A DNA stretch of 56,957 nt from a virus (taxonomy: Duplodnaviria; Caudoviricetes). The stretch is from the IMG/VR virus record IMGVR_UViG_3300010399_000043, positions 1 to 56,957 of that record. The stretch is one strand, 5' to 3'. Under the pieces are notes generated by a model. That model had not been told where the DNA came from, did not search any database, and saw nothing but the letters and a program-made list of their open reading frames with translations. Each line of letters starts with the position of its first letter. Positions within the stretch are counted from its first letter, which is position 1. Shown piece after piece: positions 8,163 through 56,333 of the stretch. The translations under genes and the position numbers were made by a program.

Positions 8163-8981
8163 TCACTCCACCGCGGCGAATAGGTGCGTCTGCAGGGACA
8201 GGCGATAGCCGCGTTCCATCGCCAGTACGGCTGCGTACTCGTGGTTCTTTTGGCAGCGCTCCCAGTCAAACAGATCGTACTTATGGGGGTGCCGTGACCA
8301 GAACGAAGCGACCTCACCCTCCATCGGAGCGCGCAGGTAGTGGTTGATCGGCGACACGTAGACGGGTCGGCCCGTCGTCTGCGCGAAGTAGTCGGCAAAG
8401 TCCGGCACCTTGTGGTAGAGCGAGTCGGGATCGGCGTCGACCAGGATCTTGAGGCATGCGGCGGCCAGCAGAGCACGGCCCATCTTCGGGTATTTGCCGT
8501 CCTGTGCAACCTTCGGTGACAGCACGACTGTAAAGTCTTGCCTCCAGTGCGCGGCCAGCATCTCGAGATCTTCCGACCAGAAGTAGCCGTTGGTCTCGAC
8601 CTGCACCTGCCAGCGCTTCTCCAGAAAATAGTTGATCAGTATCGCGGCGCTAGGCTGCATCAAAGGCTCGCCGCCGGTCAGTACCATGAGTCGATCTGTC
8701 GGTGGGCAGTTGGGCCGCAGCTTGCAGCGAGCCCTGTACTCAACCTCATGGTCCAGCATTCGTTCGCCCTTACTGAGGGTGAAGGACGTATCACACCAGG
8801 GGCAGCTCTTCTTGGCACCCAGGTTGCAGCCAGCAAGCCGGACGAACACTGCGGACCGCCCGGCGAATGGTCCTTCGCCTTGAAGCGTCGGAAAGATGCT
8901 GGTGACAAGCACCTGCCCGTTGCCCAAGTGCCTGTAGTCCTTTCGCCGCGCGTTGACGTCGCGATTGATGACAACTGTCAT
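8163..8981 (-). CDS. queE: 7-carboxy-7-deazaguanine synthase (radical SAM)
   Basis: SIFPTLQGEG...FVRLAGCNL...CPWCDT, LTGGEP, VETNG, VLSPK and terminal LSLQTH motifs. Confidence 0.88.
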   Translation of the reverse strand: MTVVINRDVNARRKDYRHLGNGQVLVTSIFPTLQGEGPFAGRSAVFVRLAGCNLGAKKSCPWCDTSFTLSKGERMLDHEVEYRARCKLRPNCPPTDRLMVLTGGEPLMQPSAAILINYFLEKRWQVQVETNGYFWSEDLEMLAAHWRQDFTVVLSPKVAQDGKYPKMGRALLAAACLKILVDADPDSLYHKVPDFADYFAQTTGRPVYVSPINHYLRAPMEGEVASFWSRHPHKYDLFDWERCQKNHEYAAVLAMERGYRLSLQTHLFAAVE

Positions 8982-11833: not shown

Positions 11834-12120
11834 TTGACCTTTTCGGCCTGTCACTCTCGGTGAACTCGCGAAACTTTTAACAGCGCTTTGCTGTGCGTCA
11901 GGACCTTCCGCGTTCAACCGGTCCTAGGCTATCGACGCTCCCAACCTGTAGCCTTTTACTCGGGCAGAGCCAGCTGAGACCAATCGGGACTGTCAGGTCG
12001 GCCCGGTCCTCTCTCTTCTGCGCTCAGTCACTGAGGGTTTCGAGAGAAGAGACCGGTGCCCTCCGGCTTGTTCCCCCGCGGTCATGTTCCCGCGGCACGT
12101 CCCCTATGGTCGGGGCTGGC
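11806..12120 (-). ncRNA. candidate structured non-coding/leader RNA
   Basis: About nine consecutive hairpins in an ORF-poor gap, ending in the terminator-like stem; strand inferred from the downstream gene and U tract. Confidence 0.45.
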
Positions 12121-12234
12121 TATGTGATATTCTCGCAACCTATTGCATACCACGCTGGCGAGCACCGCGAAAATGTGTTATGCGGGGTATGTCAGGGCTA
12201 TGCGTTGCACTAGGCACAAGAGAGGTCGGCAAAG

Positions 12235-12468
12235 ATGCGGGGCAGCGCCACGCTGCAAAGGAAGACCCAGGAGCTGTGGACGACCAGGGATCTGGCCGTG
12301 CTCTTCAACCGTACTCCCATGACGATCTACCTGTGGCGGCGCGATCGCGGGTTGCCGGCCGTCGTGATCAAAGGTGCCGCGCGGCCGGCGGTGCGCTTCA
12401 TCCCCGCGGACGTCAGGGCCTGGGCCTCACGCAACGGTTACCGCATGCGCAAGGAGGCGATGGCGTGA
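12235..12468 (+). CDS. AlpA/excisionase-like HTH DNA-binding protein
   Basis: LWTTRDLAVLFNRTPMTIYLWRRDRGLP...VRF...VRAW. Confidence 0.75.
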   Translation: MRGSATLQRKTQELWTTRDLAVLFNRTPMTIYLWRRDRGLPAVVIKGAARPAVRFIPADVRAWASRNGYRMRKEAMA

Positions 12469-13754
12469 CGAACTCAGTTCTATTGCAGCGTGACCCGGGC
12501 TTTCCACCTGTTCAGGCCCGGCACGGTGGTGGGTCGTGGATCAACGGTACGTACTTCGACCTGTCCTCAGGTGCTGGCGTCGCCTGCCTGGGTCTAGGTC
12601 ACCCCGAGATCGCACGCAGCATGGCCTCGTGGTCGCGTGAGCTCGGTTATGCGCATGCTGCGCAGTGCTTCACCTCGGCCGCCGCGCTCTTGGCTGAGGA
12701 TCTGTTGTCCAATCTGGGTCCGGCCTTCGTCGGCGGTGGGGTCACTTTCTTTTCGGGTGGGGCGGAGGCCGTCGAGGCGGCCTGCAAGCTGGCAACCCAG
12801 TACCTGCACCTGACGATGTCGGGTATCGGGCGGGTTCGCTACGTCGGGCGTCAGTACTCCTATCACGGCGCGTCCTTGTTCACGCTAGCGCTCGGTGATC
12901 ACCCGCGCAAGTGGGCCGTCGCGGCCGAGATCTCCGGTATCGACGTCGGTCGGTTCATGGCCTATTCGCCGCACCCGGGTACGCCAGTTGGCGAGCGTGA
13001 TCTGTATCGAAGCTCTGCCCTAAATTCGCTGTCATACCAACTGCAGACTGGCCAGCGCTCGGTCGTGGTCGCTGAACCGGTCGGGGGAACAGCGATCGGC
13101 ATCTCTGCGCCGGACAAGAGGTACCTGGTTGGTCTTGCTGACACCTGCCGGGAGGCCGGGGCGGTGCTGATCTACGACGAGATCCTGTGCGGCAACTGGC
13201 GCACCGGCAGCATGTTCGCGCACCGTGCGCTCGGCGGTGACGAGGCGGACCCGGACATAGTGGTCACCGGCAAGGGTCTCACCGGCGGTTACTTCCCGCT
13301 CTCTGCTGTTTGCCTGTCAGAACGCCTCACCGCGGCCTTGCGCGACCATCGCCTGGGTCATACTAGTACCAATCAGAACCACCCGGTAGGCTGCGGGGTG
13401 GCGCTTACAACTCAGTCCCTTTATCGGCAGGCGAAGATGGGGGGCTGTATAGGCGCGTTGATGGATCATCTCGATCAGAAGGCGCCTGAGTTGCGCAAGG
13501 CAACCGGGATCAGCGCCGTTACCGGGCTCGGTCTACTGCGGGGCATCCATCTTGATCCGACGGTGCCCGGGTTGCATATGGTGGCGCGCGCCGCCCTGCG
13601 AAAGCGCGGGATCATGGCCTACACCGAGGGTGGTACGGTCGAGGGACAGGGTAACTTTATTTTGCTGGCGCCGCCGTATTGCACGATGGTTAGCGAGCTG
13701 GATTCAGTCCTCGATACGGTTACTGAGGTCATCTCCGAGCTCCCCGGGCTTTGA
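12465..13754 (+). CDS. class-III PLP-dependent aminotransferase
   Basis: YFDLSSG..VACLGLGHP, SGGAEAVEAA, SYHG, YDEILCG.WRTG, PDIVVTGKGLTGGYFPLSA; GTG start overlaps the upstream stop. Confidence 0.9.
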   Translation: MTNSVLLQRDPGFPPVQARHGGGSWINGTYFDLSSGAGVACLGLGHPEIARSMASWSRELGYAHAAQCFTSAAALLAEDLLSNLGPAFVGGGVTFFSGGAEAVEAACKLATQYLHLTMSGIGRVRYVGRQYSYHGASLFTLALGDHPRKWAVAAEISGIDVGRFMAYSPHPGTPVGERDLYRSSALNSLSYQLQTGQRSVVVAEPVGGTAIGISAPDKRYLVGLADTCREAGAVLIYDEILCGNWRTGSMFAHRALGGDEADPDIVVTGKGLTGGYFPLSAVCLSERLTAALRDHRLGHTSTNQNHPVGCGVALTTQSLYRQAKMGGCIGALMDHLDQKAPELRKATGISAVTGLGLLRGIHLDPTVPGLHMVARAALRKRGIMAYTEGGTVEGQGNFILLAPPYCTMVSELDSVLDTVTEVISELPGL

Positions 13755-17583: not shown

Positions 17584-19329
17584 ATGACGGCCCGCGTGCT
17601 GCCCACCCAGGTTGCCTATCCGCTACCTCAGACCATCCGGCCGCCCTACAACTTGACCTGGCCGCCGGACTACGTGTCGGTCCTGGCTTGGCGGCAGCAG
17701 CAGATCCTTCGTCTGCGCTCTGATCCGTCCCTGATCGTGGGCGCGCTGGAGTACTACAAGGACCGCCCGGTCGACTTCATTAATCATTGGTGCACGACCT
17801 ACGACCCTCGACTCGCGATCTCGGGCCGGCCGCCGACGATGCCCTTCATTCTGTACCAGCGGCAGGAGGAGTTCATCGAGTTTGTTGTCGAGGCTTGCCT
17901 GCGCCCGCAGGAGAACGGTCTGTCAGAGAAGACGCGTGAGGTGGGCGCGACCTGGCTGTGTTGCGGCATATCAACCTGGCTGTGGCGTTACTGGCGGGGT
18001 GCTAGTATCGGCTGGGGCTCACGTGAGCAGGACCTGGTTGACAAGATCGGTGATCCTGATGCGATCTTCGAGAAGATGCGGATCATCATCCGCAACTGGC
18101 CGCCCGAGTTTCTGCCGCGGGGGTTCTCGGTGGCGAACGACATGTCGTTCATGCGCATCGTTAATCCGGAGAACGATGCTACGATCACTGGCGATATCGG
18201 TGATAACATCGGTCGTGGAGGGCGCAAGCTGATCTACTTCTTCGACGAGGCAGCGCACGTTACTCATCCCGAGATGGCCGAGGCTGCTCTATCGGAGACG
18301 ACCCGATGTCGCATCGACATCTCGTCGGTTGACAAGCCTGGTAACGTGTTTCATAGGCGGCGTGAGGCGGGGGTCGATTGGTACCCGGGTGCCGACATAC
18401 CGCGTGGTAAGACTCGGGTATTTGTGTTCGACTGGCGCGACCACCCGGAGAAGACCCAGGAGTGGTACGATCTCAAGAAGAAGCGGGCCGAGGAGGAGGG
18501 TCTTACGACCGTTTTCGCCCGTGAGATCGACCGTGACTACTTCGCGACCCAGGAAGGTGTCGTTATCAAACGCGCCTGGGTGCAGGCGGCGATTGACGCG
18601 CATATCAAGCTGGGGTTTGAGGAGACCGGTCGCTGGTGCACAGCGCTCGATGTCGCCGACGCCGAGGAGGGTGACACCAATGCCTGGACCGGACGGCAGG
18701 GTGTCATCCTGCGCGAGGCCGAGGAATGGGGGGCACGCGACCCGGGCGTGACGGCCCGCCGCGCCTTCCAGTTATCAGGTGCCCATCTGCCCTGCGAGCT
18801 GCGTTACGACGTGATCGGCTTGGGTACCAACGTGCGGTCAGAGGGCAACAGGTTGCAGGACGAGGAGGCGATGCCGCGTGGTCTGCGTTTGATCCCTTGG
18901 CACGCGGGAGCCTCGGTCGTGGATCCCAACAAGCCGATCGTGCAGTCGGACGGTCGCGACCCGCGCGAGAAGCTGCCGACCAACGAAGAGTTCTTCGCCA
19001 ACCTCAAGGCGCAGGCCTGGTTCAACGTGGCCCGGCGCTTCGAGAGGACGTGGCGCGCTGTCAACGACCCGAACTTTCGCTGGCAGGTCGAGGATCTGAT
19101 CTCGATCGACTCGCGCATCCCGCTCTTGCGCAAGATCGAGAAGGAGCTGTGCCAGGTGACGATGGGTCAGGGTGCGCGGCTCAAGCAGGTCGTGAACAAG
19201 AAGCCGGACGGCATGCCATCTCCTAACGTAGGAGACAGTGTGATCATGAACTACTTCCCGCTGTCGTTCCCCGGCGCCGTCAAGATCTCGCAGTCGGCGC
19301 TTGCCTGGTCGCGCGGGTTGGGTCGATGA
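17584..19329 (+). CDS. terL: terminase large subunit
   Basis: EKTREVGATW ATPase motif, FFDEAAH Walker B, ALDVAD, YDVIGLG, FANLKAQAW, SPNVGDS nuclease motifs. Confidence 0.92.
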   Translation: MTARVLPTQVAYPLPQTIRPPYNLTWPPDYVSVLAWRQQQILRLRSDPSLIVGALEYYKDRPVDFINHWCTTYDPRLAISGRPPTMPFILYQRQEEFIEFVVEACLRPQENGLSEKTREVGATWLCCGISTWLWRYWRGASIGWGSREQDLVDKIGDPDAIFEKMRIIIRNWPPEFLPRGFSVANDMSFMRIVNPENDATITGDIGDNIGRGGRKLIYFFDEAAHVTHPEMAEAALSETTRCRIDISSVDKPGNVFHRRREAGVDWYPGADIPRGKTRVFVFDWRDHPEKTQEWYDLKKKRAEEEGLTTVFAREIDRDYFATQEGVVIKRAWVQAAIDAHIKLGFEETGRWCTALDVADAEEGDTNAWTGRQGVILREAEEWGARDPGVTARRAFQLSGAHLPCELRYDVIGLGTNVRSEGNRLQDEEAMPRGLRLIPWHAGASVVDPNKPIVQSDGRDPREKLPTNEEFFANLKAQAWFNVARRFERTWRAVNDPNFRWQVEDLISIDSRIPLLRKIEKELCQVTMGQGARLKQVVNKKPDGMPSPNVGDSVIMNYFPLSFPGAVKISQSALAWSRGLGR

Positions 19330-19622
19330 GCCAACCGACTCATTGCTGCTCGGTGAAGGTCAGTCTGATCTCGGCTGACTATCTTGCGCTGCAGCGGTAC
19401 GCTGCTGCCGCCGGCGGCACCGTGTCGGACTGGGCGCGCGGCTGTATAGTCGACGCGTTGGCCGACGAGCGCGAGAAGCGGGTGCATCAGATCGCTGGGT
19501 CGGCAGGGGGTGCGGGCGCCACCCCCCTACAGGCCAGGCCCAAAAAACCGCCTCAGCAGCCCCCACAGCCGCGCTTTACGGCGTTCCAGCGCCTGTCGCG
19601 CGGACACCCGGAAACGGATTGA
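19326..19622 (+). CDS. hypothetical (RHH-like) protein
   Basis: ORF coupled to terL and portal; VKVSL...ALQRYAAAAGGTVSDWAR. Confidence 0.55.
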   Translation: MSQPTHCCSVKVSLISADYLALQRYAAAAGGTVSDWARGCIVDALADEREKRVHQIAGSAGGAGATPLQARPKKPPQQPPQPRFTAFQRLSRGHPETD

Positions 19623-22600
19623 TGGCATCAGCGAAGAAGTCAGGACCGCGCAAGCGGTCCCTGTCGCGCGTCCGTCCGCGTGGTCGCATACCTATGTCTG
19701 CCCGCATGTGGGCGGCGCAGAGGCGGCCGTCCGACGTGCTGCCCAATCCGTTCACCTTCCCGGAACATCCTTCGGAGGTGACCCCGTCAAGCGGCGGTCT
19801 GGCGCAGGACACCGAGCTTTCGGAGGTGCAGAGCTGGGCCGCCGGTTCGCTTGTCGCGACCGCGATGACCTCCTCGTTCGCGGAGGGGCTCACCTTCCTC
19901 GGATATGCGTACCTGTCGTTGCTGGCGCAACGCCCGGAGTACCGCCGCCTGTCCGAGGTGCTGGCGCTGGAGATGACACGCAAGTGGATCAGGCTCACCA
20001 CCGACGGGGAGCAGGACCCGCGTACCGCGGCGAAGATCAAGCAGCTCGGCGACGAGCTCGAGCGGCTTAAGGTGCAGGACGCTTTTCGCCGGCACGCTGA
20101 GTTCGACGGCTACATGGGTCGATCGCACTTGTACCTGGATACCGGCGACACCGACAATCCGGAAGAGCTGAAGACGAATCTGGGCACCGGGTCCGACGAC
20201 GCCTCGATCAACAAGATGAAGCGCGGCAAGCTGCGCCGGATCAAGGTGATCGAGGCTGTCTGGGTCTACCCGACCCAGTACAACAGCAACAACCCGCTGC
20301 GCGACGACTGGTACGTTCCGACCCGCTGGATCGTCATGGGCACCGAGGTCCACGCCTCGCGTCTGCTGACCCTGATCTCGCGGCCCGTCCCTGACATGCT
20401 CAAACCCGCCTACTCGTTCGGCGGGCTGTCCATGTCGCAGATGGCGAAGCCCTACGTTGACAACTGGCTTCGCATCCGGCAGGCGGTCGCCGAGACGATC
20501 GTTGGGTTCTCCACCTCCGGTGTCAAGACGAACCTGTCCACCCTGATGCAACCGGACGGGGACGACCTTCAGATCAGGGCCGAGTTTTTTGCTAACTGCC
20601 GAAACAACAAGGGGCTGATGCTCCTTGATATGGATACCGAGGACTTCTTTTCTAACGCGATCCCGCTTGGCACCTTGGACGCACTGCAGGCGCAGTCGCA
20701 GGAGCACATGGCGGCGGTCTCCGGTATCCCGATCGTCAAGCTGCTCGGTATCCAGCCGGCGGGTCTCAACGCTTCCAGCGAAGGCGAGATCAGGACCTTC
20801 TACGACACCATCCACGCGATGCAGCGCAACTTGTTCGATACCCCGCTTCGTACAGTGTTGGACTTCGCGCAGCTCTCCCTGTGGGGCGAGATCGACCCGA
20901 CGATCAAGCACGTCTGGGTCCCGCTCTACTCGCTGGACGAGCTGCAGGCGGCGACCAAGCGCAAGACCGACGCCGAGACGGACGTTGCTTTGATTGGCGC
21001 TGGTGTTATCACAAACGCCGAAGCGCGCAGGAAGCTCGCCGCCGATCCTGACACGCCCTATGCATCCCTCGATGAGGATGAGGTGCCTCTCAACGCCGAG
21101 GAGGTGCCGGAGGCGCCGGCCGAAGGTGAGGGCGATCCGACAGGTGGTCCCGACGATGATGAAGCCCCGGCGCTCTCCGAACTTGGTGAGGAACCCGATC
21201 CGCGCGAGGCGCGCAGAGACGGGCCTCGTCCGCGGGATCGCGGTGGTGATGGTGGGGGTCGGCAGGACCGACGCGCAGGCCGCGGCAGATCGCGCGGACG
21301 CGGCACGGAGGATGGGGACCGCGGCCCTTTTGACGGTGCGCGCGACAGCGCGGAGTTCAAGGAGTCTGATCACCCGCGCGACGACAGTGGTAAATTTTCC
21401 CACGTCGGTGGAAACGTTGTCAGGATGCACCCTGATGATTACCTGCAGTTGGCTGTTCCTTTCGGCCATCACGGTGGCCCTGTTGCGGATCCAGATAAGG
21501 TGGACAATCTGGCGGGTATCGGGCAAGCGGGCTGGACTAGTAAACCTATGCTCTCGGCAAAGGAGGGGCCTGGCGGTAAGCTTCAGGTGGGTTTGCATGA
21601 TGGTCGCCACCGGGCTTTGGCTGCAAAGAAGAATAAGGAGATGCTGGACGTTGCTATTGTTCGGGGTAAGAAGCTTGCGCGCGAAAACCCTGATTTGACC
21701 GATGAGCAGATTGCCAAGCGCGTTGCGAAAGAGGGTTTGCTGCCCGAGCTCCACGGTATGGATTCGGACTTCAAGGAGTCGGATCACCCGCGTGCGCCGG
21801 ACGGCAAGTTCGGGTCAGGTGGCGGCAGCAAGGCGAAGAGCCTGACACCACCTCAGCTGCGCTCAGAAAAGTCGACCCTTGACCGGTTGGCTAAGTACGC
21901 GCGTGGTCAGGACGTCACCTTGAATCTGGTGCAGCACCCGGACCACATCGAGCTTCGTGGCATCTTCGCCAAGAATCCCGGGAGCGGTGACGGTGCCACC
22001 ATCTTGAAGCAGTTGAACACGGTCGCGGATCAGACAGGGCGGGAGGTTCGCCTGATCGCAGCCTACCAGGGTCCTGAGACAGAGAAGGTGGAGCTCGACC
22101 CCAGTCCTGCGAACGAGGCGGCTTTTCGCAAGCAGCAGGACCGGCTGGTGGAGTTCTACAAACGGCACGGCTACGAGCCCAAAGGGGATCTGGACGAGGA
22201 AGATCTGGAGATCCCGATGGTCCGCAAGCCTCATGCTGGTGCGCAGGACTCGGACTTCAAGGAGTCGGAACACCCGCGCGACGACGATGGCAAGTTCAGC
22301 TCGTCAGGCGGCGGAGGTGGCGTGAAGGCCGCCGGTACGCAGACAGCGCACCAGGCAACCAAGGTCGAGGGTGGTAGGCGTGTCTCGGCAACCGGCGGCC
22401 CCCTTCCCCCGCACATCGCGGCCCTGCGGATCCCGCCGGCCTGGACCGATGTGACCTACAACCCCGATCCGAAGGCGAACCTGCTGGTGACCGGTAAGGA
22501 TGCCAAGGGTCGCCGGCAGGCCGTGTACTCGCTAGCGCACTCGGAGAAGCAGGCGGCCGCCAAGTTTGCGCGGATCGAGGAGTTGAACCGCAAGTTTGAC

Positions 22601-23179
22601 GGCGTCGTCGCCGAGAATGAGAAGGCGCGGCAGTCGAAGGACGCGAAGGTGCGGGCCGCCGCCGACTGCACTATGTTGATCATGCAGACAGGCATCAGGC
22701 CCGGCAGCGAGGACGACACCGGTGCCGAGAAGCGCGCCTACGGCGCGACGACGCTGGAAGGCCGCCACGTGGACGTCGCCCCCGACGGTTCAGTCACCCT
22801 GCGGTTCACCGGCAAGAAGGGCGTAGACCTCGCGATCCCGGTCGAGGACGCAGCTGTCAAGAAGATGCTGATCGCGCGCAAGAAGAAGGCTGGTGCCAGC
22901 GGGCAGTTGTTCCCGATCAGCGAGAAGAACCTGCTAGATCATGTCCACTCGTTCGACGGCGGCGGGTTCAAGACGAAGGACTTCCGCACCCTGCTGGGCA
23001 CGAAAGAGGCGATGCGGGCTGTCGCTGAGCGCAAGGCGCCTACCAGCGAAAAGGAGTACAAGAAGGCGGTCACCGAGGTGGCGCGCGAGGTCTCCCGCAA
23101 GCTGGGTAACACTCCTGTCGTGGCCCTGCAGTCCTACATCAACCCGTCCGTGTTTGCTGAGTGGAGGTCCGGTCTGTGA
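19619..23179 (+). CDS. portal protein (DUF1073) fused to ParB-like, GNAT and DNA topoisomerase IB modules
   Basis: N-terminal FLGYAYLSLLAQRPEYR, VHASRLL, GIPIVKLLGIQPAGLNASSEGE; C-terminal HDGRHRALAA, LVEFYKRHGY, IPPAW/IRPG/FTGKKG/KDFRT/LGNT/SYINP. Confidence 0.9.
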   Translation: MMASAKKSGPRKRSLSRVRPRGRIPMSARMWAAQRRPSDVLPNPFTFPEHPSEVTPSSGGLAQDTELSEVQSWAAGSLVATAMTSSFAEGLTFLGYAYLSLLAQRPEYRRLSEVLALEMTRKWIRLTTDGEQDPRTAAKIKQLGDELERLKVQDAFRRHAEFDGYMGRSHLYLDTGDTDNPEELKTNLGTGSDDASINKMKRGKLRRIKVIEAVWVYPTQYNSNNPLRDDWYVPTRWIVMGTEVHASRLLTLISRPVPDMLKPAYSFGGLSMSQMAKPYVDNWLRIRQAVAETIVGFSTSGVKTNLSTLMQPDGDDLQIRAEFFANCRNNKGLMLLDMDTEDFFSNAIPLGTLDALQAQSQEHMAAVSGIPIVKLLGIQPAGLNASSEGEIRTFYDTIHAMQRNLFDTPLRTVLDFAQLSLWGEIDPTIKHVWVPLYSLDELQAATKRKTDAETDVALIGAGVITNAEARRKLAADPDTPYASLDEDEVPLNAEEVPEAPAEGEGDPTGGPDDDEAPALSELGEEPDPREARRDGPRPRDRGGDGGGRQDRRAGRGRSRGRGTEDGDRGPFDGARDSAEFKESDHPRDDSGKFSHVGGNVVRMHPDDYLQLAVPFGHHGGPVADPDKVDNLAGIGQAGWTSKPMLSAKEGPGGKLQVGLHDGRHRALAAKKNKEMLDVAIVRGKKLARENPDLTDEQIAKRVAKEGLLPELHGMDSDFKESDHPRAPDGKFGSGGGSKAKSLTPPQLRSEKSTLDRLAKYARGQDVTLNLVQHPDHIELRGIFAKNPGSGDGATILKQLNTVADQTGREVRLIAAYQGPETEKVELDPSPANEAAFRKQQDRLVEFYKRHGYEPKGDLDEEDLEIPMVRKPHAGAQDSDFKESEHPRDDDGKFSSSGGGGGVKAAGTQTAHQATKVEGGRRVSATGGPLPPHIAALRIPPAWTDVTYNPDPKANLLVTGKDAKGRRQAVYSLAHSEKQAAAKFARIEELNRKFDGVVAENEKARQSKDAKVRAAADCTMLIMQTGIRPGSEDDTGAEKRAYGATTLEGRHVDVAPDGSVTLRFTGKKGVDLAIPVEDAAVKKMLIARKKKAGASGQLFPISEKNLLDHVHSFDGGGFKTKDFRTLLGTKEAMRAVAERKAPTSEKEYKKAVTEVAREVSRKLGNTPVVALQSYINPSVFAEWRSGL

Positions 23180-23532: not shown

Positions 23533-23987
23533 TGGACAAGAAGGAAGACATCTCCTACCAGCGCTTGGGTGAGGCGCTGTTCCAGCGGTTCCGACAGCTC
23601 AGCACGCAGCGGATGGGTGCCGCGGAACTTTGGGAACAGCTCGCCGCTCACGCGGTGGAGCAGATCGACGCGCGTCGGGCTACGCTCGCTGCAGGCACCA
23701 TTCCTCCCGGTGCCCGCCCGGTTGGTCTGCCGGGCTCAACCAGTTCGCTGGTCGGCAAGACGATGGTTCTAACCGCGGATGTCAAGCTGAGTCACAGCGG
23801 TCTAACTTTGCCTAAGGGTACTAAGGTTACCGTCACCCGTTTGTTGAACCACAATTTTGTCGCGTTTGCCGCGGTAGACTTCGGCGGTGAGGAGGTTTGC
23901 ATTAAGGTCACCAATCTTGTCGAGGACGACAAGAACGACGATTACGGTGAGGACCCGCTCGGTCTGTCGCCCGGAGATCCTCGGTGA
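23532..23987 (+). CDS. hypothetical protein
   Basis: TGATG-coupled ORF. Confidence 0.6.
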   Translation: MDKKEDISYQRLGEALFQRFRQLSTQRMGAAELWEQLAAHAVEQIDARRATLAAGTIPPGARPVGLPGSTSSLVGKTMVLTADVKLSHSGLTLPKGTKVTVTRLLNHNFVAFAAVDFGGEEVCIKVTNLVEDDKNDDYGEDPLGLSPGDPR

Positions 23988-24481
23988 TTATCCGTACGGC
24001 CGACATCTCGGACTGCGGGCGGTATCGCTACACGCTGACCCGCCGGTGGTCGATCGGATCACTCATGACGTTTATCATGCTGAACCCCTCGACAGCCGAC
24101 GCTGCGGAGGACGACGCGACGATCCGTCGCTGCATCGGCTTCGCCCGGCGCGAGGGCGCTGCCGGCCTGCTTGTCGTCAATCTGTTCGGGCTGCGCGCTA
24201 CCAACCCCAAGGCCTTGCTGTGCGCCACCGATCCCTTCGGGCCTGGTAACGATAAGGCGCTGCGCTACGCCGCACGTCAGCGGCAGGCGTATCCTACTGT
24301 CTGCGCGTGGGGCACCCGCGGTGAGCTCCTGGATGCGGACGCACGCGCTCTCGCGATCCTGCGCGACGAGTGTGCAGCACTGGTGTGCCTGGGCAGGACA
24401 GAGCGGGGTCACCCGCGCCATCCTCTCTACGTTCGGGCTAATCAGCAGTTCGAGTCATTGGATCATGCTCGCGCGGCCTGA
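23984..24481 (+). CDS. DUF1643 family protein
   Basis: SDCGRYRYTL.R.W...FIMLNPSTAD...DDATIRRC...VNLF..RATNP...HPRHPLY. Confidence 0.88.
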   Translation: MIIRTADISDCGRYRYTLTRRWSIGSLMTFIMLNPSTADAAEDDATIRRCIGFARREGAAGLLVVNLFGLRATNPKALLCATDPFGPGNDKALRYAARQRQAYPTVCAWGTRGELLDADARALAILRDECAALVCLGRTERGHPRHPLYVRANQQFESLDHARAA

Positions 24482-25253
24482 GGTTATCTGTCGGCCGCAG
24501 CACGCCAGCGCCGCGCTAGAGGCCTGGTACCGCAAGAAGCTCAAGTGTCTGATCCGCGAGATGCATTGCAGCGTGATCTGGTGGCTGCGAGCCGCCTACC
24601 GGGCCGATACCCCTGTACTCGCGCAGGACGCCTCGCCGGCGCACGCGCTGTCGGCCGCGATCAGGAAGCTGGTGCGGCGATGGCAGAAGCGCTTCAACGC
24701 CGCGGCCCCGCAGCTGGCGCGCTACTTCGCGACGGATATCATGCAGCGGTCCGACAAGCATCTGCACAAGATCTTGAAGGACTCGGGGTTTACAGTCGAG
24801 TTTAAGATGACCCCCGCGATGCGGGACGTGTTCGCGGCGACCGTGCGGGAGAACGTGTCCCTGATCAGGTCGATCCCGCAGCAGCACTTCGCCAAGATCG
24901 AGGGCCTGGTCATGCGATCCGTGCAGACGGGCCGCGATCTGCAGCAGTTGACGAAAGATCTGCAGAAGAACTTCGCTGTGACCCGGCGCCGCGCGGAGCT
25001 GATCGCGCGCGACCAGAACAACAAGGCGACCGGTGCCCTGCAGCGCGCGCGCCAGATCGGCCTCGGTATGGCGGAGGCGATCTGGATCCACTCCGGTGGC
25101 GGCCGACACCCGCGCCCGGCGCATGTGCGGATGTCGGGCAAGCGGTACAAACTTTCGCAGGGTATGTGGGACAGCACAGAGAAGCGATATGTGTTCCCGG
25201 GCGAGCTGATCGAGTGCAAATGCACCAGCCGCCCCGTCATACCCGGGATGTGA
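24465..25253 (+). CDS. head morphogenesis protein (MuF / SPP1 gp7 family)
   Basis: ENVSLIRSIP, RRAELIARDQ, WIHS...RPAH, PGELIECKC. Confidence 0.88.
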   Translation: MLARPEVICRPQHASAALEAWYRKKLKCLIREMHCSVIWWLRAAYRADTPVLAQDASPAHALSAAIRKLVRRWQKRFNAAAPQLARYFATDIMQRSDKHLHKILKDSGFTVEFKMTPAMRDVFAATVRENVSLIRSIPQQHFAKIEGLVMRSVQTGRDLQQLTKDLQKNFAVTRRRAELIARDQNNKATGALQRARQIGLGMAEAIWIHSGGGRHPRPAHVRMSGKRYKLSQGMWDSTEKRYVFPGELIECKCTSRPVIPGM

Positions 25254-31982: not shown

Positions 31983-32080
31983 GGTCACCCGGGCTGAGAA
32001 AAAGCAGGAGCTCCCCTTCTCAACCCCCGCGCTCGGTGGACCTCCCCCGACCGGCATTTTTGTTTCGAGGAAGAACGATC

Positions 32081-33202
32081 ATGAATCTGCAGGAAGCAAT
32101 GGCCGCCCTGCGCGCAGACCGGTCGCAGCTGGAGGCGCGTGGAATCTACATCCTCCCGGGAACCCGGGCCTACATGCCGGCCGGTTGGCGGGCAAACTAC
32201 AACCTTGCCATGGACGCCATGCCCGAGCTCGGTGTCGACGCCATGCCGACCCTGTCGACCGATCCGAACTCGGCCGTCCCGGCGATGCTGACGACCCTGA
32301 TCGACCCGCAGGTCTTCAAGATCCTGTTCGCACCCAACAACGCGGCCAAGATCTTCGGCGAGGTCCGCAAGGGTACGTGGCTGGACGAGACCGCCATGTT
32401 CCCGGCGGTCGAGCACACCGGCGAGGTTTCCTCGTACGGTGATTTCAGCAACAACGGGCGGGCCGGTGCCAACACCAACTGGCCTCAGCGTCAGGCCTAC
32501 CTATTCCAGACGATCAAGGAGTACGGCGAGCGTGAACTCGAGCGCGCCGGCCTCGCGAAGCTCGACTGGGTGTCGCAGATCGACACGGCCGCGGCGACGG
32601 TGCTGGACAAGTTCAGCAACCTGTCGTACTTCTTCGGCGTGCAGGGCCTTCAGAACTACGGGCTGCTCAACGACCCGAACCTGACGGCCTCCCTGACCCC
32701 CGCGACCAAGGCCGCCACCCCTGGTTCCGGCAAGTGGGTCACCAACGGTGTGATCACCGCGACCGCGAACGAGATCTACACCGATATCCAGTCCATGTTC
32801 TACGCGATGCAGGTGCAGACCTTGGGCCTGGTCAAGGCCCAGGACAAGATCGTCCTGGCGATGGACCCGGCGACGTCGATCGCGCTCACCGCGACCAACT
32901 CGTTCAACGTCAACGTCTACGACCTCCTGAAGAAGAACTTTCCCAACATCAGGTTCGAGGAGGCAGTCCAGTACGGCGTGACCACCGCCTCGAACCCGCA
33001 GGGGATCGCCGCGGGGAACATGGTTCAGATGTTCGCCGAGACGGTCGAGGGTCAGCAGACTGGGTACTGCTCATTCAACGAGAAGATGCGGGCGCATCCG
33101 ATCATCCGTCAGCTGTCCTCCTTCCAGCAGAAGGTGACGGCCGGTACGTGGGGGACGATCATCCGGATGCCCTTCACGATCGTGTCCATGCTGGGAGTTT
33201 GA
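32081..33202 (+). CDS. major capsid protein (DUF2184-like)
   Basis: LTTLIDP...GEVRKGTW, E.TGEVSSYGD, YGERELE, YFFGV.GLQNYGLLNDP, FNEKMRAH, GTWG.IIR.P. Confidence 0.9.
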   Translation: MNLQEAMAALRADRSQLEARGIYILPGTRAYMPAGWRANYNLAMDAMPELGVDAMPTLSTDPNSAVPAMLTTLIDPQVFKILFAPNNAAKIFGEVRKGTWLDETAMFPAVEHTGEVSSYGDFSNNGRAGANTNWPQRQAYLFQTIKEYGERELERAGLAKLDWVSQIDTAAATVLDKFSNLSYFFGVQGLQNYGLLNDPNLTASLTPATKAATPGSGKWVTNGVITATANEIYTDIQSMFYAMQVQTLGLVKAQDKIVLAMDPATSIALTATNSFNVNVYDLLKKNFPNIRFEEAVQYGVTTASNPQGIAAGNMVQMFAETVEGQQTGYCSFNEKMRAHPIIRQLSSFQQKVTAGTWGTIIRMPFTIVSMLGV

Positions 33203-37468: not shown

Positions 37469-38608
37469 ATGTCGCAGCGTACTGATTGGATCTACCCGAC
37501 AGCCTTCCCGTGCTGGGGCCCGGAGGAGAAGGCGGCGATTATGCGGGTCGTCGACTCCGGTAACTTCACGATGGGGGTTGAGGTCGAGGCGCTCGAGTGC
37601 GAGTTTGCGGCCTACCACGATCGCCGGTACGCGATCGCTGTCAACTCCGGCTCTTCTGCCAACCTGATCGCTGTTGCGGCCTTGGTCAACAGCAAGCGGC
37701 TCCAACCCGCCGTCTCGGCGGCGCTGGTACCAGCACTCGCCTGGGCCACGACCTACGCACCGCTGGTGCAGCACGGCCTTGGACTATTGCTCGCTGACTG
37801 CGACGCGACCTGGAACGCGCACCCGCAGCGGCGTCCGTCCTACGTTGACCCTGATCTGATCGTCACCTGCCCTGTCCTGGGCAATCCAGCCCATCAAGCG
37901 GCTTGGCTCGATCTGGCGGCTAGTGCTGATTTGCCGGTGCTGGAGGATTGCTGCGAGTCACTGGGTGCTCGAACCGACGACGGGGAGCTCTGCGGCACCT
38001 TCGGGCTGTTGTCCACCTTCTCGTTCTACCACTCGCATCAGATCGGGGCGGTGGAGGGCGGGATGATCCTCACCGACGATCACGAGCTCGCAGTGCTCTG
38101 TCGCATGCTGCGTTCGCACGGTTGGACCCGTGGCAGTGTTGAGATCGCCTCGTTCGAGGAGGAGTACGACTTCCGCCTGTTCGGGTACAACGTGCGGCCG
38201 ACCGAGATCTATGCCGCGGTGGCGCGCGAGCAGTTGAAGAAGCTGGATGCCTCGATCACGGCTCGCCGCAAGAACGCGATCTACTTTGCGGGACGGGTGC
38301 AAGAGCTGCACCTTCCGATCGATCTGCCGTATGTCGTCGGTCACCCCTCGCCGTTCGGCATGGCCTTCACGCTGCGTCAGCCGGAAAGGCGCCTGGATCT
38401 GGTCGCCGCCCTGCGCAAGGCCGGTATCGACTGCCGTCTGCCGACTGGCGGTTCCTTCCGGCTGCACGCCTACGGTTCGTACTGGGCCGAGCAGCAGACA
38501 CCTTTCGCCGACAGCATCCACAGGGCTGGTATGTTCATAGGGAATGCGCCGTTCGATATCTCCGATTTGATCGATCGCGCGATCTCTGTGATGCGGGAGG
38601 TTCTGTGA
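37469..38608 (+). CDS. DegT/DnrJ/EryC1/StrS family PLP enzyme, ColD/RfbH-like NDP-sugar 3-dehydratase
   Basis: VNSGSSANL, EDCCESLGA, FSFYHSHQIGAVEGG (His where aminotransferases have Lys), GYNVRP. Confidence 0.88.
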   Translation: MSQRTDWIYPTAFPCWGPEEKAAIMRVVDSGNFTMGVEVEALECEFAAYHDRRYAIAVNSGSSANLIAVAALVNSKRLQPAVSAALVPALAWATTYAPLVQHGLGLLLADCDATWNAHPQRRPSYVDPDLIVTCPVLGNPAHQAAWLDLAASADLPVLEDCCESLGARTDDGELCGTFGLLSTFSFYHSHQIGAVEGGMILTDDHELAVLCRMLRSHGWTRGSVEIASFEEEYDFRLFGYNVRPTEIYAAVAREQLKKLDASITARRKNAIYFAGRVQELHLPIDLPYVVGHPSPFGMAFTLRQPERRLDLVAALRKAGIDCRLPTGGSFRLHAYGSYWAEQQTPFADSIHRAGMFIGNAPFDISDLIDRAISVMREVL

Positions 38609-54347: not shown

Positions 54348-56333
54348 ATGTCCACGATTCCTGCAAGTGAGATCGTCCAGGTCAACCCGGCCGTGCTGCC
54401 CGCGGGCGGCAGGGCGCTTGACATCAACGGGGTGATCCTCACCCACTCCACCCGGGTTCCTGTCGGGGCCGTCCAGCCGTTCGCGACCGCGGACGACGTC
54501 TCCGACTACTTCGGCGGTTCCTCCCAGGAGGCGGACCTCGCCGACAACTACTTCAACGGCTTCGAGAACAGCTCGATCAAGCCGGCGCAGCTGTTCTTCA
54601 CGCAGTTCAATCCTACCGCCGTCCCCGCCTACCTGCGCGGCGGCACGATCTCGGGCATCACCCTGCAGCAGCTGCAGCTCCTGTCCGGTACCCTGATCCT
54701 GACGGTCGACGGATACCTGCGCACGTCGGCCTCGATCAGCCTCGCCGCGGCGACCTCGTTCTCGTCGGCTGCTGCCCTGATCCAGGCGGGCTTCGTCGGC
54801 ACCGAGCCGACTGCGGCGACTGTCACGGGTTCCATCGGCCCGGGCACCGCATCCCTCAACGGGTACATCGACGGCAACATCCTGACGGCGACGACCGTCA
54901 CCGGCACCCTGCGCGTCGGCGGATCGGTCGGCGGTTCAGGCGTCGCCGCAGGCACGCGCATCACCGGGCAGCTGTCGGGTGTTGACGGGGCGGCCGGCAC
55001 CTACGCTGTGTCGATCTCGCAGACCGTCGCCGCGACCGCGATGACCCTGACCTTCGGCATCCTGACGGTCGCGTCTGTCGCCTCGGGCTTCGTCGACACC
55101 GGGCAGACGGTGACCGGGACCGGCGGCGGCGGTGTGACGGCCGGCACCATCATCACGGCCGGCCTGTCGGGAACCGGCGGCACCGGCACCTACATCGTCG
55201 CACCCTCGGGCACGGTGTCGAGCACGACCCTTGTCCTGAAGGCGACCTCGCTGACGGTGACCTACGACAGCACCAGCAACTCCTTCCTGCTGACCTCGGG
55301 TGTGTCGGGCGCCGCCTCGACCGTGACCTTCGCGACAGGGACGCTCGCCGCAGCGATCAACTTCACGCAAGCCGAGGCCGCCGTCCTGTCCCAGGGTGCC
55401 AACCCGGCGATCCCCGGCACGTTCATGGACGCGATAACCGACGTCACCCAGAACTGGGCGACCTTCATGACGGCCTTCGACCCTGACAGCGCCTCCGGCT
55501 TCAACACCCAGAAGCTGCTGTTCGCGCAGTGGACCGCTGAGTCCAACAATCGCTATGCCTACGTGTGCTGGGATCCGGACGAGGGCCCGACAGGGACCAA
55601 TCCCGACGTCGCCTCCCTCGGCTGGCTGCTCAATCAGTCGAACTCGTCGGGCACCTTCCTGTTCGGTCAGGGGGTCGGGGCCAGCAACGGTGCGGGTGAC
55701 GCCGTTCCCGTCACCGCGAACTACGCGGCCTTCATCTGCGGTGCTGCCGCCTCCATCAACTTCGAGCAGTTCAACGGCCGCACGACCTTCGCCTTCCGCA
55801 TCCAGTCCGGCCTGTTCCCGACGGTCACCGATGCGACCAGCGCGAACAACCTGCTGCAGAACGGGTACAACTACTACGGCGCCTATGCCACCGCGAACGA
55901 CGACTTCATCTGGGTATACAACGGGCAGATCTCGGGCGAGTTCCTGTGGATGGACTCGTACATCAACCAGATCTGGATGAACAACGCCTTCCAGCTGGCA
56001 CTGATGGTCCTGCTCAAGTCGGCGAAGTCGATCCCGTACAACACGGCTGGCTACTCGCTGATCTCGGCTGCCCTTCTCGACCCGATCCTTGCCGCTGTCA
56101 ACTTCGGCGCGATCAGGCCGGGCATCACTTTGTCCGAGTCGCAGGCGGCGCAGGTCAACAGCCAGGCGGGTGTGAAGATCGACGATATCCTGAACAGGCA
56201 GGGCTGGTACCTGCAGGTCCGCGACGCCAGCCCGCAGGTCCGGCAGGCCCGCGGCACCCCGCCCTGCACTTTCTGGTATATGGACGGGCAATCGGTTCAG
56301 AGGATAGTCTTGGCGTCCATTGAATTGACTTGA
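54348..56333 (+). CDS. tail sheath protein (DUF3383)
   Basis: IPAS.IV.V.P.VL..GG, YF.GF.NS..KP..L.F, TQNWATF, YN.YGAYA, W.DSY.NQIW, IPYN..G, FWY.DG.S. Confidence 0.88.
   Translation: MSTIPASEIVQVNPAVLPAGGRALDINGVILTHSTRVPVGAVQPFATADDVSDYFGGSSQEADLADNYFNGFENSSIKPAQLFFTQFNPTAVPAYLRGGTISGITLQQLQLLSGTLILTVDGYLRTSASISLAAATSFSSAAALIQAGFVGTEPTAATVTGSIGPGTASLNGYIDGNILTATTVTGTLRVGGSVGGSGVAAGTRITGQLSGVDGAAGTYAVSISQTVAATAMTLTFGILTVASVASGFVDTGQTVTGTGGGGVTAGTIITAGLSGTGGTGTYIVAPSGTVSSTTLVLKATSLTVTYDSTSNSFLLTSGVSGAASTVTFATGTLAAAINFTQAEAAVLSQGANPAIPGTFMDAITDVTQNWATFMTAFDPDSASGFNTQKLLFAQWTAESNNRYAYVCWDPDEGPTGTNPDVASLGWLLNQSNSSGTFLFGQGVGASNGAGDAVPVTANYAAFICGAAASINFEQFNGRTTFAFRIQSGLFPTVTDATSANNLLQNGYNYYGAYATANDDFIWVYNGQISGEFLWMDSYINQIWMNNAFQLALMVLLKSAKSIPYNTAGYSLISAALLDPILAAVNFGAIRPGITLSESQAAQVNSQAGVKIDDILNRQGWYLQVRDASPQVRQARGTPPCTFWYMDGQSVQRIVLASIELT

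Follow-up and report, generated by a model that had tools for sequence, protein, structure and literature searches.

Among known virion proteins with a sorting signal, the internal proteins of the T4 capsid (IPI-III and Alt) carry a capsid targeting sequence that is removed by the gp21 prohead protease; poxviruses, in turn, carry a topoisomerase IB (TopIB) of their own in the virion. The closest described phage systems are the polyvalent proteins, defined by Iyer et al. (2017, PMC5512222) as single polypeptides of a phage or conjugative element that combine at least two effector-type domains and are encoded together with virion or transfer genes. The portion of that paper available to us describes fusion to portal or MuF proteins for PBECR and 2H domains, lists ParB/sulfiredoxin (Srx)-like and GNAT domains as cargo, reports that some polyvalent proteins end in an assemblin-like protease, and attributes processing mainly to zincin-like MPTase domains. 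Here we analyze a window of 56,957 bp, the whole of the linear viral record IMGVR_UViG_3300010399_000043 from IMG/VR, in which a single open reading frame (ORF) encodes a phage portal protein followed by three enzyme-like modules, each headed by a copy of a short conserved peptide (the tag, or header). The last module is apparently an intact topoisomerase IB (TopoIB) of the bacterial/poxvirus type.

We favor, with fair confidence, the interpretation that this polyprotein carries several enzymes as cargo, is anchored at the portal and is loaded into the head; its cleavage and ejection are less certain. The gene layout suggests that three enzymes are probably packed into the phage head and delivered along with the DNA. 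The N-terminal PF06381 domain would build the dodecameric portal. Because the C-terminus faces the head interior in all portals whose structures have been solved, each prohead would enclose up to twelve copies of an arm consisting of the ParB/Srx-like enzyme, the GNAT and the TopoIB. The conserved and probably disordered header ahead of each module would serve as a handling signal for head cargo. A DUF2213 prohead protease encoded nearby might then cut at A-x-D just before each header, a step that in our judgment could go either way, freeing three separate enzymes that may be ejected together with the DNA and work at an early stage of infection. ATP-independent relaxation of phage or host DNA would be the task of TopoIB; more speculatively, the GNAT and the ParB/Srx-like NTPase/nuclease might have host or defence targets. 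A small acidic protein with an LGFDP motif, encoded next to the polyprotein, may inhibit or handle TopoIB.

Compared with the described systems, the locus is familiar in its general plan. As in polyvalent proteins encoded among the virion genes of portal-terminase phages, three enzyme modules lie on one polypeptide inside the head module, and the NUDIX-DUF2213 protein of the window is comparable to the assemblin-like protease of some of them (PMC5512222). The window protein differs in lacking zincin-like MPTase domains and in a first module that does not match the DdrB-like ParB Pfam model of Iyer et al. 2017 (PF18763). In the text of PMC5512222 available to us, a topoisomerase appears in the title of a reference only, and neither the FxExxHPR...GKF header nor the LGFDP partner is mentioned. 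The MuF polymorphic toxins of temperate phages (Jamet et al. 2017, PMC5576092; available text) are likewise head proteins with variable C-terminal toxic or enzymatic domains, and their small immunity gene directly downstream recalls the small companion gene found here. The window differs from them in its portal carrier, its three cargoes and its origin in an uncultured myovirus, and a term search of that text found no matching pre-cargo motif. Effectors fused to portal or MuF, cargo of the ParB/Srx and GNAT types, and polyvalent proteins as such are already known (PMC5512222, as far as available). On the sequence evidence, what appears to be new is a portal-anchored polyvalent protein that has three cargoes, one of them a TopoIB cassette, together with a conserved header before each module and an acidic partner specific to TopoIB.

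The tag also invites comparison with the T4 capsid targeting sequence. Both are short peptides heading otherwise unrelated proteins, those of T4 being capsid-internal, and both are linked to prohead-protease processing, a link that for the tag is our proposal. Unlike its T4 counterpart, the tag stands inside the protein, with one copy before each module, and a cut at the upstream A-x-D would leave it attached to the cargo. The candidate cleavage rule also differs, with A-x-D and DUF2213 here versus L/I-x-E and another protease family in T4. Because the two sequences are unrelated, we do not count the tag among the T4 capsid targeting sequences.

Both domains that define a TopoIB, the N-terminal beta and the catalytic domain, were found in module 3 above their Pfam cut-offs: PF21338 at amino acids (aa) 933-961 (E = 1.2e-7; 31.7 bits, cut-off 27) and PF01028 at aa 977-1168 (E = 3.5e-21; 76 bits, cut-off 23.7). 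The module also aligned with the TopIBs of D. radiodurans (2f4q, E = 6.5e-21) and variola virus (2h7f, E = 1.3e-9). Residues R1027, K1066, R1123, N1164 and Y1173, which we take to be the TopoIB catalytic pentad Arg-Lys-Arg-His/Asn-Tyr, aligned with positions 130, 167, 223, 265 and 274 of the variola chain and with the GNTP and SY motifs of the Deinococcus enzyme. A TopoIB with five recognizable catalytic positions had been proposed from the letters of the window alone (hereafter the sequence-only reading); the Pfam matches and the alignment to solved structures uphold it. All of the motifs cited in that reading were found (IRPG, GKKG, KDFRT, LGNT and SYINP, and, for the other two cargoes, HDGRHR, GSGDG and LVEFYKRHGY).

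The window enzyme shares with the solved bacterial and poxvirus TopIBs (2f4q/3m4a, 2h7f) the PF21338 + PF01028 layout and the aligned R, K, R, N/H and Y, and with the Deinococcus enzyme the Asn at the fourth catalytic position; by eye, identity to the solved enzymes is approximately 25-30%. Unlike them, it lies at the C-terminal end of a portal polyprotein, with a tag in front of it and an acidic partner gene behind. In the parts of these papers available to us, viral Topo IB is listed for poxviruses and Mimivirus only, and the bacterial enzymes are proposed to derive from a viral Topo IB group not yet discovered (Forterre and Gadelle 2009, PMC2647321), while a phage-specific topoisomerase I of the tyrosine-recombinase fold is reported among the DNA-manipulation genes of a few jumbo phages (Iyer et al. 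2021, PMC7824862). A literature search, judged partly from titles and abstract openings, found no paper on a portal-borne or virion TopoIB in phages.

Membership of the N-terminal part in the portal family is supported by its PF06381 score (249.1 bits versus a cut-off of 33.8), by a match to PHROG 146 (portal; aa 84-516, E = 7.3e-98), and by position, directly after the large terminase gene within the head module. A second portal model, TIGR01555, scored below threshold (48.2 bits versus 196), and a Pfam scan of the charged linker alone returned nothing usable. Portal, linker and three tagged modules thus occur in one ORF as the sequence-only reading had it, according to the ORF itself, Pfam and the motif scan. 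In database gene calls the polyprotein starts at Met30 (nucleotide (nt) 19706), giving 1157 aa.

About 20 relatives, either solo proteins or modules of giant proteins, make up the small family of module 1. We confidently regard it as a ParB/Srx-like domain on the basis of its modelled fold. Its AlphaFold2 model, built from 17 sequences, had a predicted local distance difference test score (pLDDT) of 89.2 and a predicted template-modelling score (pTM) of 0.80. The best-ranked Foldseek neighbors in the PDB were Noc, sulfiredoxin, ParB and KorB, followed lower down by SbnI, serine kinase and Osa (E from 5e-4, TM approximately 0.5). Model and neighbors, which come predominantly from this superfamily, agree on its alpha+beta fold, in keeping with the original assignment. 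A near-invariant HDGRHRA stretch (H66, D67, G68, R69, H70, R71 and A72, invariant or at least 90% conserved in the 17 sequences) is presumably the superfamily's active-site Arg motif (DGxHR / GxxR type). Relatives of module 1 stand at the end of a C39-peptidase-MuF protein (P0126) and inside an LPD38 polyvalent protein (P0123). A sub-threshold Pfam match to Rv0078B on the last helix of the module was rejected as chance. One giant protein (P0190, 3228 aa) consists in part of more than 10 tandem repeats of approximately 143 aa, each weakly like the N-terminal half of module 1.

Module 2 itself had no Pfam match, and a word-index homologue search with it alone found nothing. Among its few relatives, P0204 and P0165 pass the Acetyltransf_1 cut-off of 20.7 bits over the aligned stretch (31.2 and 25.3 bits), and another lies between the NUDIX and DUF2213 domains of P0147. 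GSGDG sits at the expected position of the acetyl-CoA-binding loop. With these homologues and a structure model of intermediate quality we assign a GNAT fold with moderate confidence, as had been proposed. The best structural neighbor was AcrVA5 (6iuf; E = 1.2e-3, TM 0.67 on the target), a mini-GNAT anti-CRISPR that is likewise a phage-borne short GNAT; at 18% identity, with a marginal E-value and a moderate model, this is a likeness of fold and does not imply a Cas12a target. Protein-atlas look-ups (ParB_N/sulfiredoxin 0.92; GNAT 0.88-0.89) served as pointers only, not as evidence. Taken module by module, profile searches and structure prediction leave all three cargo assignments standing.

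The three repeated tags that the sequence-only reading placed ahead of the cargoes are all present, one at the head of each module, with the consensus [A/G]xD(S)x[D/E]FKES[D/E]HPRxxxGKF. In all six frames of the window, patterns of the HPR..G[KRQ][FWY] type matched these three and one unrelated out-of-frame site, a hit to the loosest pattern. Pairs of tags are identical at just 34-45 of 60 nt (45/60 for tags 2 and 3), which indicates that the peptide is kept at the protein level and that the tags are not recent DNA duplicates. In the module 2 structure model, tag and spacer are predicted to be disordered.

The tag extends well beyond this locus. It was present in 184 of 244 proteins of a collected set, with the general form [A/G]-x-D-x-[D/E]-F-x-E-x-x-H-P-R-x(3-8)-G-[K/Q]-F followed by a Gly/Ser spacer. 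The search pattern imposed E, H, P, R, G and F, which reach 100% in the logo by construction; the residues ahead follow A-x-D-x-[D/E], position -3 being D in 49% of tags and position -2 being A in 48%. At least 74 aa lie beyond the last tag in 182 of the 184 tagged proteins, and gaps between tags are at least 71 aa long (median 236, n = 120). A recognizable cargo was found in 59 of 75 eligible multi-tag proteins, a set retrieved via the tag itself: ART (16), TopoIB (10), NUDIX (8), InPase, Zeta toxin, RelA/SpoT and deamidase. Their carriers comprised three portal families, MuF, DUF2213 and one S78 protease. This variety of cargoes and carriers sharing one tag supports the general tagged-cargo system envisaged earlier. 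In 47 solo proteins the tag lies 7-60 aa from the protein's own N-terminus. Leaders ahead of N-terminal tags fall into recurring types, such as a His-Ile repeat (..HIHIHIH..; P0157, P0166 and P0215) and a helix-like type ending in ..RADAE/F (P0131, P0151 and P0168), and may be separate address peptides. Our literature search found no paper on the tag, and a description within supplementary polyvalent-protein architectures is possible.

The small acidic ORF that overlaps the polyprotein stop contains DVVAMLGFDP at aa 46 and has a Cys-rich, HiPIP-like C-terminus (PF01355, 24.1 bits versus a cut-off of 22). We scanned 60 TopoIB loci, 58 of them with at least 600 nt downstream, and found one copy of DDDEEL.ETP.DV[VI].MLGFDP in 52, mostly 105-205 nt beyond the end of TopoIB. 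The motif takes three forms: a mini-protein of 46-123 aa (33 loci), an N-terminal leader on whichever head protein is encoded next (DUF2213, NUDIX or tagged cargo), and an extension fused to the TopoIB C-terminus. In the protein sets, seven of eight LGFDP occurrences lay approximately 75 aa past the TopoIB end signature, and just 2 of 124 tag-selected proteins contained it. This TopoIB-linked placement marks LGFDP as a companion of TopoIB rather than a general leader. Most likely the LGFDP protein is an inhibitor or handler of the enzyme; it may act as an inhibitor or DNA mimic, or as a loading adaptor where it heads the protease/scaffold.

Evidence on processing comes from the capsid and protease genes. 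Capsid proteins of the window and three sister phages carry (L/M)AMD/A (the slash marks the putative cut) about 55-60 residues in, just ahead of the capsid-family match (aa 57-61 versus aa 65 in the window), and we regard it as a candidate maturation site. The window capsid protein has a duplicated AMDAMPELGVDAMPTL around LAMD/A at aa 57-75, which is single-copy in the sister phages. [AS]MD occurs seven times in the window protease/scaffold protein versus 0.4 expected (0/500 shuffles) and twice in the capsid protein versus 0.11 expected (3/500 shuffles); 15 other proteins contain none. The protease/scaffold protein consists of NUDIX (aa 8-125), an intervening stretch, DUF2213 (aa 321-488) and a scaffold-like tail, and holds a half tag, ARDADFKEQ, between cargo and protease domain, flanked by two MD sites. 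A repeated MD[GS]WGPFA stands on either side of this half tag. In sister L015 the scaffold has six A-[RKLM]-D-A sites (0/500 shuffles), and A-x-D enrichment is weaker in L018 (43/500 shuffles). A predicted complex of the DUF2213 protease domain with a 40-residue tag peptide (score 0.02; mark 0.32) speaks neither for nor against binding, and the literature on DUF2213, judged from titles and abstract openings, yielded no account of its cleavage specificity. An A-x-D-specific maturation protease that also cuts ahead of each tag is plausible from these sequences, the cut at the tags being evenly balanced between likely and unlikely.

Several observations weigh against the interpretation of a tagged, head-loaded and protease-released cargo. 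The portal polyprotein has no [AS]MD, and its own sites (ARD, GMD and AQD) are unlike the capsid and scaffold sites at P2; two of four sisters, L023 and L030, show no A-x-D enrichment in the protease/scaffold. The earlier proposal that the prohead protease releases the cargo at xxD sites thus gains indirect support from the capsid LAMD/A and the [AS]MD enrichment of the protease/scaffold, with these two negatives standing against it. DUF2213 was found in 10/14 tagged versus 6/20 untagged TopoIB records (Fisher p = 0.035), a weak association that is confounded by incomplete contigs and relatedness, and 4/14 tagged records had no DUF2213 match above cut-off, two of them being <45% complete. The Asp at -3 is found in just 49% of tags, and the tag also occurs alongside an S78 protease and other portal families. 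Because the portal-NUDIX fusion gp16 of BcepNY3 has no tag, the tag is not required for every portal fusion. As to the cargoes, module 1 matched no curated ParB profile (PF02195 or PF18763) at E up to 10 and is for that reason classified by its fold alone. For module 2 the model is of moderate quality (pLDDT 67, pTM 0.55, five sequences), and its listed fold neighbors, mostly GNATs with a few unrelated chains, all have marginal E-values of 1.2e-3 or weaker.

Relatives of the post-portal part show how these genes vary. A query with this part matched 258 proteins, and among the 120 listed most combine PF06381 with TopoIB; other TopoIB partners among the matches listed are Mu-type (PF06074) and lambda-type (PF05136) portals, MuF, DUF2213, NUDIX, ART and InPase. 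From 58 viral loci we obtained 55 TopoIB reading frames, 14 of them on a window-like portal and many others solo genes with the tag 20-40 aa from the N-terminus. The sister phages L015, L018 and L023 have the head module of the window, with capsid proteins 53-58% identical; in them TopoIB has a gene of its own, headed by a tag and placed between those for MuF and the protease. Among 50,697 records of isolated phages, none matched beyond the portal part (0 records at 80% coverage); searched with the post-portal part, the isolated-phage collection yielded two records only, both via TopoIB. A scan of genome contigs returned two contigs of metagenome-assembled genomes only, both phage-type, and gave no host clue and no cellular TopIB. 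NCBI names two PF06381-TopoIB fusions (P0068 and P0086) 'anti-CBASS Acb1 family protein'; since the window protein matched no anti-CBASS Acb1 model in NCBIfam, the name looks like a carry-over from portal fusions.

The polyprotein appears to have been assembled in steps. GC content at third codon positions (GC3) is 0.585 +/- 0.045 in module 1, 0.624 in the linker and 0.739 in module 2, versus 0.850 in the portal and 0.846 in TopoIB, and it ranges from 0.79 to 0.89 in eight other window genes, so the greater share of A/T-ending codons noticed in the first cargo is real. The nearest relative (P0003, 901 aa) is 43% identical over the portal and 67% over tag 3 and TopoIB, and lacks the equivalent of aa 518-873. 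Because of this gap and the GC3 contrast, the segment from the linker through tag 1, module 1, tag 2 and module 2 looks like a later insertion into an older portal-tag-TopoIB gene. Both lines of evidence agree with the separate acquisition of the first cargo and the modular build suggested by the sequence-only reading, and the three-cargo portal shows the cargo system growing by cassette insertion.

Three other explanations have to be weighed against a head-loaded cargo. The simplest is that assembly or gene calling has joined a portal gene to separate downstream genes, and the odd composition of the linker (GC 0.725 but GC3 0.62) might suggest such a seam. Two frames were translated across it: the ORF frame has no stops and the other is riddled with them. 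Portal-TopoIB fusions from other samples make up most of the 120 listed among the 258 matches. The same 1157-aa protein, but for a single substitution (V902G), is found on an independent Logan/ENA contig of 112,040 bp, so the fusion is not an artefact of assembly, a possibility that the sequence-only reading had named as one of its refutations; we consider this explanation to be practically negligible. A stronger alternative is that the fusion is genuine and the cargo arm is never cut, its enzymes staying tethered to the portal in the head, where TopoIB relieves torsion during packaging or ejection. Given established portal topology, the fusion does put TopoIB beside the DNA channel, the polyprotein lacks the strict [AS]MD of capsid and scaffold, and portal-TopoIB is the commonest architecture among the relatives listed. 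However, TopoIB is a separate gene in L015, L018 and L023 and rides elsewhere on MuF, protease or NUDIX, so that it does not need a fixed place at the portal; modules without any role in packaging (ART, NUDIX, Zeta and RelA/SpoT) have the same tag at their head; and if nothing separates, it is difficult to see why each module should have a tag of its own. Torsion relief at the portal during packaging, which the sequence-only reading had offered as its own alternative, is weakened by the separate genes and other carriers of the sister phages, and we judge a permanently tethered arm to be rather unlikely.

Like the pre-toxin motifs of polymorphic toxins, the tag could instead be a conserved in-frame junction that serves mainly for recombinational swapping of cassettes, or a mere linker, and not a processing or loading signal. 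Tagged modules do swap freely between carriers, what sets the window protein apart from P0003 is an inserted cassette with tags at its boundaries, 45/60 nt are identical between tags 2 and 3, and tag plus spacer is predicted to be disordered. Yet the tags of one gene keep their peptide while sharing as few as 34-45/60 nt, which points to selection on the peptide; the strongly conserved H-P-R...G-K-F with its two aromatic anchors exceeds the needs of a linker; and in the 47 solo proteins no junction is needed. We consider a junction-only role unlikely, and a junction role and a signal role are not mutually exclusive.

If the head-loaded cargo reading is right, phages, like poxviruses, import a ready-made DNA-relaxing enzyme into the cell, which would raise the question of what part DNA topology plays in the first minutes of infection or in defence evasion. 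A header of about 20 residues common to hundreds of protein families would amount to a simple rule for the handling of enzymes in phage heads and could become a handle for loading chosen proteins into phage particles, and the acidic LGFDP partner would be a natural TopoIB-binding peptide. A wider proposal, which we make tentatively and regard as doubtful, is that many uncultured tailed phages share a sequence-addressed head-cargo system in which the FxExxHPR...GKF header marks modules, whether solo or fused to any of the head carriers, to be loaded and then set free by an Asp-specific prohead protease. Its standard cargoes would include a TopoIB silenced by LGFDP until injection, a phage counterpart of the poxvirus virion topoisomerase, and these phage enzymes could be the missing viral Topo IB group that Forterre and Gadelle proposed as the origin of bacterial TopIB.

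Table 1. Features of the portal polyprotein and of the surrounding head module (nucleotide positions in the window).
Feature	Position	Strand	Remarks
Large terminase TerL	17584..19329	+	directly upstream of portal gene
Portal polyprotein ORF	19619..23179	+	open throughout, 1186 aa from TTG 19619
Portal domain PF06381 (Phage_portal_3 / DUF1073)	19907..20983	+	aa 97-455, E 6.9e-74
Charged low-complexity linker	21086..21337	+	aa 490-573; acidic, then Arg/Gly-rich
Tag 1 ARDSAEFKESDHPRDDSGKF	21338..21397	+	aa 574-593
Cargo module 1, ParB/sulfiredoxin-fold domain	21398..21754	+	aa 594-712
Tag 2 GMDSDFKESDHPRAPDGKF	21755..21811	+	aa 713-731; Gly/Ser spacer next
Cargo module 2, short GNAT-like acetyltransferase domain	21812..22240	+	aa 732-874
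Tag 3 AQDSDFKESEHPRDDDGKF	22241..22297	+	aa 875-893; Gly/Ser spacer next
Cargo module 3, apparent bacterial/poxvirus-type topoisomerase IB	22298..23176	+	aa 894-1186
Small acidic ORF, 123 aa	23161..23532	+	26 D+E vs 14 K+R; overlaps polyprotein stop
DUF1643 protein (PF07799, E 3.6e-40)	23984..24481	+	between portal polyprotein and MuF
MuF-family head protein (PF04233)	24171..25253	+	same cargo types ride on MuF in other phages
NUDIX + DUF2213 prohead protease + scaffold-like tail, 847 aa	28372..30915	+	second carrier-cargo fusion
Minor capsid protein	from 31017		part of head module
Major capsid protein	32036..33202	+	capsid-family match begins aa 65

The head module is complete, comprising TerL, portal, acidic ORF, DUF1643, MuF, protease/scaffold, and minor and major capsid genes (Table 1). 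Because the DUF1643 frame overlaps the long open frame that holds MuF, the MuF start probably lies further downstream. CheckV estimates the record to be 59% complete, and no tRNA genes were found in the window. A tail sheath gene at 54348-56333 identifies the phage as a myovirus. Outside the head module, the window encodes a QueE-like radical-SAM protein (PHROG 2076, E = 4e-44) and two aminotransferase-like proteins, at 8163-8981 (-), 12084-13754 (+) and 37469-38608 (+), which may indicate 7-deazaguanine or other DNA/sugar modification by the phage.

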